A stretch of DNA of 64,000 bases from Trichodelitschia bisporula (GCA_010356995.1 ML996698.1:431923-495922), one strand, 5' to 3'. Numbered from the stretch's first letter, positions 21,242-24,701 are shown. Made by a program: numbers and translations. The notes: generated by a model not told the origin, from the letters alone.

Positions 21242-21926
21242 ATGGCCGGGGGCGCCGTGAAATACCGGCATCTGAGCAGAAACTCTGCCCATCGCCAGGC
21301 CCTTCTCCGCAACCTCATTGAGTCCCTGATCGAGCACGAATCGATTCGAACGACATGGCACAAGGCCAAAGAAACGCAGCGCCTGGCAGAAAAGGTCATC
21401 ACCCTCGGAAAAAAGAACACAGAAGCCAGCCGTCGGCGCGCCTGGCAAATATTCTATGTATGCGCTCACGACTCCTCTGCCTCTCGCCCCGCTAATATCC
21501 CTCCAGCGACCCGCTCTACTAGTTCCCAAAGTCTTCGGTGAGCTCCGCGAACGGTACGCCGATCGTCCTGGTGGCTACACGCGCGTGTTGCGCATCGAAC
21601 CCATCAAGGAAGATCAGGCCGCCTCGGCGATTCTCGAGCTCGTCGACGGGCCCAAAGACATGCGCTTTGCCATGACGGCCAAGACCCTAGCTCACCAGCG
21701 GAGAGAAGGCAAGCCGATCAACGAAATCACCCAGCAGAATCTTACCAAGGTGACGCGCTTCCGCAAGGATGGCGCGGGGGAGCTTGAAGAGCTTGTGAAG
21801 AAGTTTGAGGCTTTGGATCCGCAAGAAGAGGCGGCAGCTGAGCGCCCACAGCAGAAGCAGGTGTACCCCCACACCGATCCAGATCCGACGAAGAAGCCGA
21901 AGAAGGCGAGATGGACCAAAAACTAA
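21242..21926 (+). CDS. MRPL8: Mitochondrial ribosomal protein bL17m; 2 exons
   Basis: YRHLSRNSAHRQALLRNL, IRTTWHKAKE and RYADRPGGYTRVLR motifs. Intron 21458-21506. Confidence 0.95.
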
Positions 21927-22264
21927 ATAGAATGAACATATATGGGCTTGGAAGGCGTTTCTTTATGGGAAAATGGGACATAGTCGTTCAGGCTGCGCTT
22001 GAGCTCACGGATGCTGAACCGAGCGAAGCTGTACGGCTCGCGTACTCGTACTTTCTATATCGAAATTCCCTCGATGCTCGCTCTGCATTGGCATTGAAGA
22101 ACTCTAAACAAATGAAAACCGGATAAGAGTCTAAGCTACACGCCCATGACAGATAGACTTCACTAGTAATATGCACAACTTGGGTATCGACGATTGACTC
22201 CCCAGAACACCAGCGAAACCTGGTAAACTCAGACAAACGTTGCGCCAAACACCGAAAGCGAATC

Positions 22265-23202
22265 CTAGCGGCCCATCCCGCCCATGTTCCGGGTCAAGGC
22301 AATACGCTTGCTGTACGGGCTCAAGCTGCGCTGTCGTGGGGGAGACGGAGCTCTTTGCTCCATAGCAAAGTCTTGAGGAGGCGGGCGTTCAAACTGCGGA
22401 GGCCGATCGGACATCTGACGGTCGTTCGCGTAAGGGCTCCGGGAGCGCGATTGCCGACCCTTCCAGCTTCCAGCGCCACCTGGTGATCGGGAAATCCGCC
22501 TATTACGTCCAGTACTACGGCTACGCGTCCGCCTATCTCCATCGCGTGCACGGCTGTGCCGACGGCCTCGCGGGGCCGGTGAGAAAGAGCTAAGTCTGCG
22601 TCGGATGTTGCGCTCGTCCAATTCGCTGTCATCTAGGTCACGGCCGGGGGAGCGGCTTTCGGACCGCGCTCGCTTCTTGCCATGGCGTGATCGGCGTGAT
22701 TCAGGTCCACCTTTCGAGGACCGCTTGTCGCGAGCTTCATAGCGAGACTTTGGAGGGGACTGCGAGCGCGTGGCAACCGTGGAGATGGTAGATACTGAGG
22801 ATGAACGAGAGGACGCTGGGGAAGGCGAGCGCTTGCGGCCGCGATCGTCAGACTTGTGCGCGGGCTTGTTGTCAAGAGCAGTGGGTCTGGAAGGTCAGTG
22901 CATGCACACATGGTACGAAAAGGCGCAGTCATATGGCTCACTTTCTGATGAGATCATCGGGAACCTCCGTTGTAAGCTTTGGCGCCAGTTTGGGGTTGAG
23001 GAGCTGTTGAGTACGAGAGGGTCGGGCGGCATACGGCCTCTCCTGCGTGCTAGCTTTGCATTCAAAGCTGTAATGGCGTGGAAGATGGGTTAGCTGACGC
23101 GTTTATAATGGGTATAGGCTACGTATCTCGTTTCAGGCACTTCTGGCATAGCGTAGAGGGGGAAGCCTTGGACACAGTCGGAGGGCGGTAAAGGCGGTGC
23201 AT
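22265..23202 (-). CDS. Zinc-knuckle (ZCCHC10-like) Arg/Ser-rich protein; 3 exons, first intron AT-AC
   Basis: ATG at 23202: MHRLYRPPTVSKASPSTLCQKCLKR-G-HYSFECKASTQERPYAARPSRTQQL. Introns 23126-23078 (AT-AC) and 22941-22887 (GT-AG). Exon 3 is open to the stop at 22265 and ends RSLSPYSKRIALTRNM. Confidence 0.85.
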
Positions 23203-24701
23203 TGTGGGGATTGCCGGGGTAGTGTACGGAGTAGCCAGTGTCGAGGACGATGGAGGCACAAGCAGGTCAGGGAGTTTTAGTTGCGATTGTGGAGGATCTG
23301 ATGAATAACCTTACTGTGTAGTTGTGAATTTGCGAATGAGCTTGATGATCGTTATGCGGAGGGTCAAACAGAGCCTCAACAGCCTTCATTGGCGCCCTGC
23401 ATTAGTTGGGGGTGGTTCGGCTATTCTAGTTGGAGGACTGGCGCGCTCTTATTATGCGGACGATGCCCTGGGAGGACTTGACTTGACTTGGGGGGGGGGG
23501 GTTTTGGGGACCAGGATCCGGAGCGCCGCGCCTCTCCTCTCCGGTGACGTGCGCACGTGCGCACGCAGTGAGTAGCCGAGAGAAGTTTTGGACGAAAAAA
23601 GAGGATTGAAGGCATCAAGATATGGAGATATCAAGGTATCCTGTACGTATGTAATAGATTTGTCACGAAATCAAGACGTCCAGACGTGAGCGTAATGATA
23701 GGGCACCAAGGTATCAAGGCATCGATATATAAGGCAGAAAGGCAGAACGGTGGAAAAAAGGCATCAAAGCAGGAACAGCAGGACATCCCGGACCAATACA
23801 TTATCCGTCACCACACCTTCTTCCACTCCCCCCCCCCAAGGGTCCAACTTCAAAAGTCATGGCCGATACCTCTAAATATCTTTGTGGAGAGACGCGGCCA
23901 TGAGTTCTTCAGGTAGGCCCTTCCCATCCCTCCCCCCCCTCCCAAAGCCCCAGGCCAGACACCGAGCGTCCAAGTTCCACTTCCCCAAAGAAACTCAATT
24001 CCTTTCTCATCTCGTCCTCTTTCTCCACCTCCACCCCCCGAAATCTTCCCCATCAGCTTCACGACTCCCTCTCCTCCGTATAAAAATCCTTACCGTCTTG
24101 TACTGTCGAAGTCTATCTTCACCCCATTCTCTCCCGTCTTCGTGCTCCTTCCCAACTCCCTTCGGTTGCCGTGGGCTCGCTACTTTTGCCGGAATATCTC
24201 GTCCCTACATCCATCATCCCCCTCTCCTCCCACCTACGACGTACCTATTCCAATCTTTCGGGCTCCTCCAAAGCCAAGTCCACCACAGACCATCAAACCA
24301 CAGCTCCCGTCCCATATTCTCAAATCTACCCGTCGTGGTACAGCGGCTTGTGGCAGCCTGGCGCGTTGCCGACTGTCTGTCGCCCCGCCCCACCCTACGC
24401 CACAGCTCTCCTTTCAACGCAAACCCGCCGCATCTCTCGCCTGCGCGCCTTCCCCGAAAAAACCACTGGCAAACACCTCCATGTTCCCTTCGCACCACCA
24501 TGCTCAGCTGCTCGGTGCCAATACTTTCCTCTTCCCTTAGGCGGCTTTTCACTTGACTTCTGCGTTCGGTTGTTTGGAGAGTAACCTTTACTGCCACATC
24601 GGCTTGACATCCGTACAACACTTTCTCTGGGACGGCCGCGACCTTCCTTCATTCACGTCTCCGCAACAGCTGCTTGTAAAGCATTAGCACTCTCTACGAA
24701 A

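Follow-up and report, generated by a model that had tools for sequence, protein, structure and literature searches.

On the minus strand, in a gene of Trichodelitschia bisporula, a fungus placed by taxonomy look-up in the class Dothideomycetes, a stretch of 49 nt within the codons for a zinc knuckle begins with AT and ends with AC. This raises the question of whether it is a genuine intron despite its ends, which spliceosome would remove it and how such ends might persist through evolution. The locus was studied within a single stretch of DNA of 64,000 nucleotides (GCA_010356995.1 ML996698.1:431923-495922), hereafter the window, the positions of which are counted from its first letter. An earlier note, made from the sequence alone, had proposed an AT-AC intron of the major-spliceosome kind at this place.

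Gene structure and the encoded protein

The gene lies on the minus strand, with an ATG at 23202, three coding exons, two introns and a TAG at 22267..22265. Its features are as follows.

23127..23202, minus strand: coding exon 1, from the ATG at 23202; 25 codons plus G, the first base of a Gly codon
23078..23126, minus strand: intron 1, AT-AC, 49 nt, phase 1; interrupts the Gly codon of the knuckle Gly-His
23121..23126, minus strand: 5' splice site ATACGT of intron 1, i.e., the fungal major-type hexamer GTRNGT with A for G at +1; G precedes it in the exon
23089..23094, minus strand: presumed branch site GCTAAC of intron 1; branch A predicted at 23090, 12 nt before the last intron base
23078..23079, minus strand: 3' terminal AC of intron 1, from the sequence and the transcript contigs
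22942..23077, minus strand: coding exon 2, opening GC CAT TAC AGC TTT GAA TGC...; the two last bases of the Gly codon come first and two bases of a Lys codon last
22887..22941, minus strand: intron 2, ordinary GT-AG, 55 nt, GTGAGC...CACTGAC...CCAG; absent from the transcript contigs
22265..22886, minus strand: coding exon 3, Arg/Ser-rich tail with a conserved RSLSPYSKRIALT motif at its end and the stop TAG at 22267..22265
23068..23122, minus strand: cryptic GT-AG pair, GTAGCC...TTACAG, 55 nt, which keeps the frame; unused in the transcript contigs

The minus-strand text from 23126 to 23078 is exactly as the earlier note had quoted it and reads ATACGT...GCTAAC...CCAC, with AT at 23126/23125 and AC at 23079/23078. 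Exon 1 ends ...CTG AAA CGA G at 23127 and encodes MHRLY...CQKCLKR, the N-terminal half of the knuckle with its first two cysteines (positions 2-13 of the Pfam zf-CCHC_3 profile), while the product of exon 2, HYSFEC...RPSRTQQL...DDLIR, completes the knuckle and adds the conserved domain tail (profile positions 15-41, E 2.6e-11). Left unspliced, the frame from the ATG at 23202 reaches a stop at codon 28; scripted joining after removal of 23126..23078 and 22941..22887 yields a frame of 834 nt, i.e., 277 codons plus the stop. The spliced 277-aa product is identical in every letter to the database protein P0004, 'hypothetical protein EJ06DRAFT_531461 [Trichodelitschia bisporula]' (277 aa), and the public T. 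bisporula model thus already uses the AT-AC junction.

The protein matches zf-CCHC_3 (PF13917), the family of human ZCCHC10, over positions 2-41 of the 41 in the profile with 69.1 bits against a gathering cut-off of 27 (E 2.9e-19), and judged by this match the host gene is a ZCCHC10-like zinc-knuckle gene. The knuckle CX2CX4HX4C, typical of the family, is encoded when the AT-AC intron is removed and is not encoded when the cryptic GT-AG pair is used, the latter product being 275 aa long with the knuckle His missing; removal of the AT-AC intron is therefore needed to build the knuckle, just as had been proposed.

Transcript evidence for the AT-AC junction

The RNA data came from two runs (X1 and X2) of one sample in the form of assembled contigs, the label 'RNA' of these runs being a guess, and the contigs were compared with the window over 22100..23350. 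One contig from each run joins 23127 to 23077, with 0 ambiguous letters at the joint and 0 mismatches between contig and window letters on either side of it. Both contigs also skip exactly 22887..22941, which has GT..AG ends on the gene strand, again with 0 ambiguity. The ends of the skipped 23078..23126 are GT..AT on the plus strand, which is AT..AC on the strand of the gene. Since these contigs carry neither intron they were treated as transcript assemblies and, being transcript assemblies with an exact 49-nt skip, they establish the junction as real in RNA: the 49 nt are excised exactly between A at 23126 and C at 23078. At intron 1 the AT-AC joint is the only one that either contig has. 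The AT-AC junction is constitutive in the transcript contigs of this one sample, where assembled contigs with one depth figure each are blind to splicing level, intron retention and rare isoforms.

Splice signals of intron 1 in the window and in orthologous loci

With the exception of +1, the donor of intron 1 fits the major-type consensus everywhere. The earlier note had given the branch-to-acceptor spacing as 11 nt, which is correct for the distance from the end of GCTAAC to the exon, whereas the predicted branch A itself is 12 nt from the last base of the intron. Two other introns of the window provide a comparison. Intron 2 is 55 nt long and has its branch A at a distance of 8 nt from the 3' end; the presumed intron of a neighbouring ribosomal protein L17 gene (21458..21506) is 49 nt long, and the A of its GCTAAT is at a distance of 11 nt. 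Judged on these two, the view that intron 1 is ordinary for the window in length and in predicted branch spacing holds.

Metagenome contigs were scanned with an alignment of 13 orthologues; 507 stretches matched, 378 were confirmed and the best 80 loci were kept, which makes for a biased sample because these are the best of 378 matches to one protein. An intron occurs at the same phase-1 Gly-codon site in 31 of the best 80 loci and the other 49 have an uninterrupted knuckle. Assignment of the loci to taxa is by best named protein match and is rough: identities in the intron-bearing loci range from 35 to 82%, and the alignment exceeds 200 residues in 14 of the 31. Together these 31 loci hold 17 distinct intron sequences, or 18 with that of the window. 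All 17 start with AT, 16 end with AC and one with AA, and none is GT-AG; nor is there a GT-AG intron at this site anywhere among the 18 distinct DNA sequences. Each of +1 A, +2 T, +5 G, +6 T and the exon -1 G is present in 18/18, as is A at the second-last intron base, and the last base is C in 17/18 and A in 1/18. The donors (ATAAGT, ATATGT, ATAGGT, ATACGT or ATGAGT) can be summarized as AT[A/G]NGT. The introns are 48-54 nt long; in 17 of the 18 the A of a CTRAY motif is placed 10-12 nt from the 3' end, the exception being CTGAG in L035, which was read as similarly spaced. Their interiors have diverged to a median identity of 0.50, so that the shared ends do not stem from recent common descent of a few sequences, bar small clusters (L045/L049/L050).

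The signals of intron 1 are of the major-spliceosome kind, as the earlier note had held, and apart from the CTGAG of L035 they recur in the 18 distinct orthologous introns. We conclude with considerable confidence that intron 1 is a genuine AT-AC spliceosomal intron in a ZCCHC10-like gene that is most likely removed by the U2-type spliceosome, an assignment for which the basis is the motifs together with the published surveys of the phylum.

The AT...AA variant at this site is found at L029:1063-1113 and in identical form in L055 (ATACGT...GCTAAC...CTTTAA). These are contigs of different metagenome records, with second introns of 108 and 107 nt, respectively; given two records with differing second introns, the AT...AA ends are probably no error, and the variant is probably functional.

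The neighbouring intron and losses of introns

The second intron of the same gene served as a control. Across the 80 loci it could be placed in 39 and was absent in 19, while 22 that had no anchor motif were left unscored. The 29 distinct sequences, including that of the window, comprise 28 GT-AG introns and one GC-AG intron (L044), end counts that are conditional on a search admitting GT-AG, GC-AG or AT-AC candidates only. As intron 2 is GT-AG in 28/29, the AT-AC state appears specific to one site. The donor pattern of intron 2 in the orthologous genes is GT[A/G]NG, with T at +6 in 16/29, its length varies between 50 and 141 nt and its branch A is placed 3-16 nt from the 3' end among the 29 distinct sequences. 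By these sequence comparisons, the signals at the intron-1 site are tighter than those of the neighbouring intron 2. Independently of this, a GT-to-GC switch between close relatives can be seen at the intron-2 donor, which is GTAAGT in L043 and GCAAGT in L044.

Of the 49 loci without intron 1, 12 retain intron 2 and several others sit on contigs of 20-227 kb. The retained intron 2 and the long contigs mark such loci as genomic, and intron 1 has thus truly been lost from them, one example being loci closest to Pleosporales proteins. The loci closest to Pleosporales proteins (L001-L022 and others; Alternaria, Parastagonospora, Paraphoma, etc.) are without both introns. Some of the Pleosporales-like loci with neither intron are themselves on contigs of 20-227 kb, which suggests a complete loss of both introns in Pleosporales.

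A proposed mechanism and the persistence of the AT-AC ends

Most likely, the 5' site would be recognized as a normal one, with +2 T, +5 G, +6 T and the exon -1 G, all of them invariant, making up for the A at +1. The branch would form at a normal CTRAC site lying 10-12 nt from the 3' end, and at exon ligation the first and last intron bases would pair as A-C, replacing the usual G-G. A change at a single end, giving GT-AC or AT-AG, would be expected to harm splicing. If a single reversion is harmful, the pair of ends would be locked in and precise loss of the intron would be the accessible escape; lock-in with loss as the escape fits the pattern of a site that is either AT-A[C/A] or without an intron. 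The AA variant (L029, L055) and the narrow range of lengths are left unaccounted for by this lock-in. Parts of the literature describe comparable behavior elsewhere: passages of PMC1557818 relate that a first-base G-to-A change is rescued, less efficiently, by a last-base G-to-C change in U2-type introns of yeast and human, and that U2-type AT-AC introns are preserved in orthologous genes, while portions of PMC5029451 describe metazoan U2-type AT-AC introns with a strong ATAAGT consensus and the splicing of an engineered AT-AC intron in yeast. The intron of the ZCCHC10-like gene may thus be seen as a test case both for base pairing between the two ends of an intron at exon ligation and for the evolutionary lock-in of a paired change, the site being AT-A[C/A] or absent in the DNA sampled.

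A different possibility, raised in the earlier note as a 'regulatory splicing bottleneck', is that slow or conditional splicing serves to control how much of the Arg/Ser-rich protein is made, possibly by feedback if that protein acts in splicing, and that the ends have been retained for this. Conservation of the ends across four classes in the face of diverging interiors, along with a length and branch spacing that are unusually tight relative to intron 2, would be in keeping with this. So would the lengths divisible by three (48, 51 or 54 nt) of 16 of the 18 distinct sequences (L029...L073 plus the window) and the placing of human ZCCHC10 alongside spliceosomal proteins, on grounds of interaction and co-expression, in a section of PMC10048706. 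However, lock-in of a paired change accounts for the conservation without any function, and the intron must be dispensable given that 49/80 loci are without it, at least 12 of them clearly genomic by their retained intron 2. Moreover, intron 1 is open in frame in 8/18 and has in-frame stops in 10/18 of the distinct sequences, by which a conserved protein made from a retained intron, considered as a candidate, is ruled out. The regulatory explanation is held to be an unlikely one.

Two bolder readings, to which even jointly only a slim chance is given, go further. In the first, the AT-AC ends would constitute a conserved splicing sensor, whereby a demanding intron, with its tight length, fixed branch spacing and A-C pair, would be lodged in the gene of an Arg/Ser-rich partner of the spliceosome; were this so, the output of the protein would track the exon-ligation capacity of the cell and result in autoregulation. 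In the second, the intron would descend from one of U12 type that, once Dikarya had lost the minor spliceosome, survived through conversion of its internal signals while its ends were kept. Lock-in of the paired ends of a U2-type intron remains the preferred account.

Traces of the intron in annotated proteins of named species

The earlier note had expected gene finders to mis-annotate this intron, and it had suggested Pezizomycotina as the range over which its conservation should be sought. The first expectation fails for T. bisporula itself, the model of which (P0004) is correct, and is borne out by the models of at least 27 orthologues that show the expected error. Relatives were drawn from the best 120 of 344 and the best 120 of 351 matches, plus a first protein search. 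Among the matches listed, at least 207 database proteins have the RPSRT motif, with the knuckle intact in 173 and not intact in 34. At least 27 proteins among the matches listed read C-x2-C-L-x-[KR]-D-[N/I/T]-[YF]-[ED]-C, i.e., Gly-His-Tyr-Ser is missing and Asp plus one residue stands in its place. This pattern is exactly what a gene finder would produce on taking GT from positions +5/+6 of a donor reading ATAAGT, ATATGT or ATACGT, together with an AG in the Tyr-Ser codons, and it is the analogue of the pair 23122..23068 in the window. The models in question are P0036, P0150, P0151, P0153-P0156, P0158-P0166, P0168, P0169, P0171, P0173, P0175, P0176, P0179, P0184, P0190, P0216 and P0220, and the species concerned are:

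Polytolypa hystricis, Emmonsia crescens, an Onygenales species and Arachnomyces
Aspergillus leporis, A. fumigatus, A. tanneri and A. ibericus
ten Penicillium species (including Penicillium digitatum) and Penicilliopsis zonata
Diplocarpon rosae, D. coronariae, Sclerotinia borealis, Rutstroemia and Monilinia vaccinii-corymbosi
Sticta canariensis and Alectoria sarmentosa (lichen fungi being thus included)
Cenococcum geophilum

Three more models, from Emergomyces africanus, Penicillium alfredii and P. salamii (P0167, P0193 and P0208), read the intron in frame, their insert starting with Asp-Lys or Asp-Met and ending with x-Arg-His as is expected of an AT...AC intron. These 27 + 3 odd models look like correctable annotation errors. 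Look-up of classes placed Polytolypa in Eurotiomycetes, Diplocarpon in Leotiomycetes, Sticta in Lecanoromycetes and Cenococcum in Dothideomycetes. The AT-AC intron would thereby be present at one and the same site in at least four classes of Pezizomycotina, the named species coming from the protein-model trace; conservation of AT..AC across the subphylum, for which the earlier note had called, is what the 31/80 metagenome loci and the 27 protein models point to. The model trace is indirect evidence and by its method reveals AT donors only: GT-AG orthologues would be annotated correctly and lie hidden among the 173 intact models, and the statement that the site is never GT-AG is therefore limited to the 18 distinct DNA sequences.

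The same models bear on the possibility that the GT-AG pair 23122..23068 is itself the true intron, or a substantial alternative one, with a 275-aa protein lacking the knuckle His as its product. That pair keeps the reading frame, gene finders have chosen its analogue in 27 public orthologue models, and rare isoforms can hide from contigs. On the other hand, both transcript contigs use the AT-AC junction and have no other joint, and the product loses the His of CX2CX4HX4C. In a test of 6 proteins the models with the error score 52-59 bits on zf-CCHC_3 as against 69-73 bits for intact ones. Further, the GT of the pair is none other than the conserved +5/+6 of the AT donor, and its AG falls in the Tyr-Ser codons, where the Ser codon is AGY in 26/33 loci without the intron and in 16/19 with it. 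A link between the cryptic AG and the choice of Ser codon, tried as a candidate, was rejected on these similar fractions. Use of the GT-AG pair as a real intron can hence be held to be very improbable. The avoidance of that junction by gene finders has left at least 27 public models without the predicted zinc-binding His, and the models that could be corrected include those of Aspergillus fumigatus, Penicillium digitatum, Sclerotinia borealis and lichen fungi.

Relation to known AT-AC introns

Among U12-type introns there is a subclass that typically has AT-AC ends, and it shares with intron 1 the terminal dinucleotides and a short fixed distance from branch to 3' end; the 10-12 nt between branch A and 3' end in the orthologous set are inside the range given for that type, and the 12-nt spacing of intron 1, taken alone, is compatible with it. 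Against a minor-spliceosome intron stand the internal signals. The U12 donor ATATCCTT is absent, the T. bisporula site having ATACGTAG; the start ATATCC occurs in 0/18 of the distinct orthologous introns, the donor of the window being ATACGT; and the U12 branch motif TCCTTAAC is absent near the 3' end of intron 1, where GCTAAC, of the CTRAC form, is found in its place. The surveys point the same way, in that parts of PMC10639083 describe Ascomycota and Basidiomycota as being without convincing minor introns and as having lost most or all minor snRNAs, and parts of PMC2846911 describe U12 splicing as missing from Ascomycota and Pezizomycotina. As regards U12 ancestry, ZCCHC10 is unlisted in the human and mouse minor-intron gene tables in the 8 supplementary files of PMC6717393, ZCCHC8 being the only such gene there, which lends that ancestry no support. 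A U12-type identity for intron 1 is consequently exceedingly improbable.

The U2-type reading places intron 1 closest to the U2-dependent ('type II') AT-AC introns of animals, such as those of SCN4A, SCN5A and TAF2, with which it shares AT-AC ends, a major-type ATAAGT-like 5' site and preservation at the same site in orthologues. In contrast to these, it resides in filamentous ascomycetes, which are reported to be without a minor spliceosome, is only 48-54 nt long across the orthologous set and has, at 10-12 nt from the 3' end, a branch site of the fungal CTRAC form; furthermore, U2 dependence was established by snRNP depletion for SCN4A and SCN5A, whereas for intron 1 we infer it. According to passages of PMC1557818, the class counts 15 introns in human, 6 in mouse and 3 in fly, or 0.003-0.008% of introns. 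AT-AC junctions have likewise emerged as a small class from RNA-seq surveys of fungi (PMC7072748; PMC6176087).

Saccharomyces cerevisiae, a fungus that lacks the minor spliceosome, offers further examples of AT-AC splicing in its engineered AT-AC actin intron and the natural nested AT-AC intron of RPL30, and it was in yeast that the rescue between first and last bases was first shown, as recounted in parts of PMC5029451 and PMC1557818. The RPL30 case, as described in a section of PMC5029451, involves about 1-2% of transcripts and a 5' site unlike the major-type AT consensus, and its mechanism is termed unclear; for intron 1, by comparison, the junction is constitutive in the transcript contigs, the 5' site resembles the consensus and the intron appears conserved across classes. 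For filamentous fungi, type II AT-AC introns had been hypothesized earlier in xylanase genes, a different gene family (mentioned in part of PMC1557818). In open-access full texts and preprints, no report of this particular intron, its conservation or its annotation error was found; text matches to 'AT-AC' in PMC3091305 proved to be strings naming polyketide-synthase domains rather than introns. What is presented here would thus be a new case of a known and very rare class, the U2-type AT-AC introns, apparently conserved to considerable depth, with the T. bisporula gene model itself already public. Natural U2-type AT-AC examples are few in organisms without a minor spliceosome, which gives this case added weight.

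That the AT-AC ends are a mere assembly or sequencing error in the window can be set aside as having a negligible chance: on either side of the joint the transcript contigs show 0 letters other than those of the window, and the AT start and A[C/A] end recur in the 17 distinct orthologous introns, which come from other samples.

The convergent neighbouring gene

The zinc-knuckle gene has a convergent neighbour on the plus strand at 21245-21923, which encodes a mitochondrial-type ribosomal protein L17, with Pfam PF01196 matched over two exons, and which also gives a weak match to Mrpl_C. The presumed GT-AG intron of this gene (21458-21506, GTATGC...GCTAAT...CCAG) splits the L17 profile between positions 50 and 56. 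The transcript contigs, which are 3.5-4.1 kb long, extend past the zinc-knuckle gene toward the L17 gene, and on account of this extension the 3' ends of the two genes may overlap.
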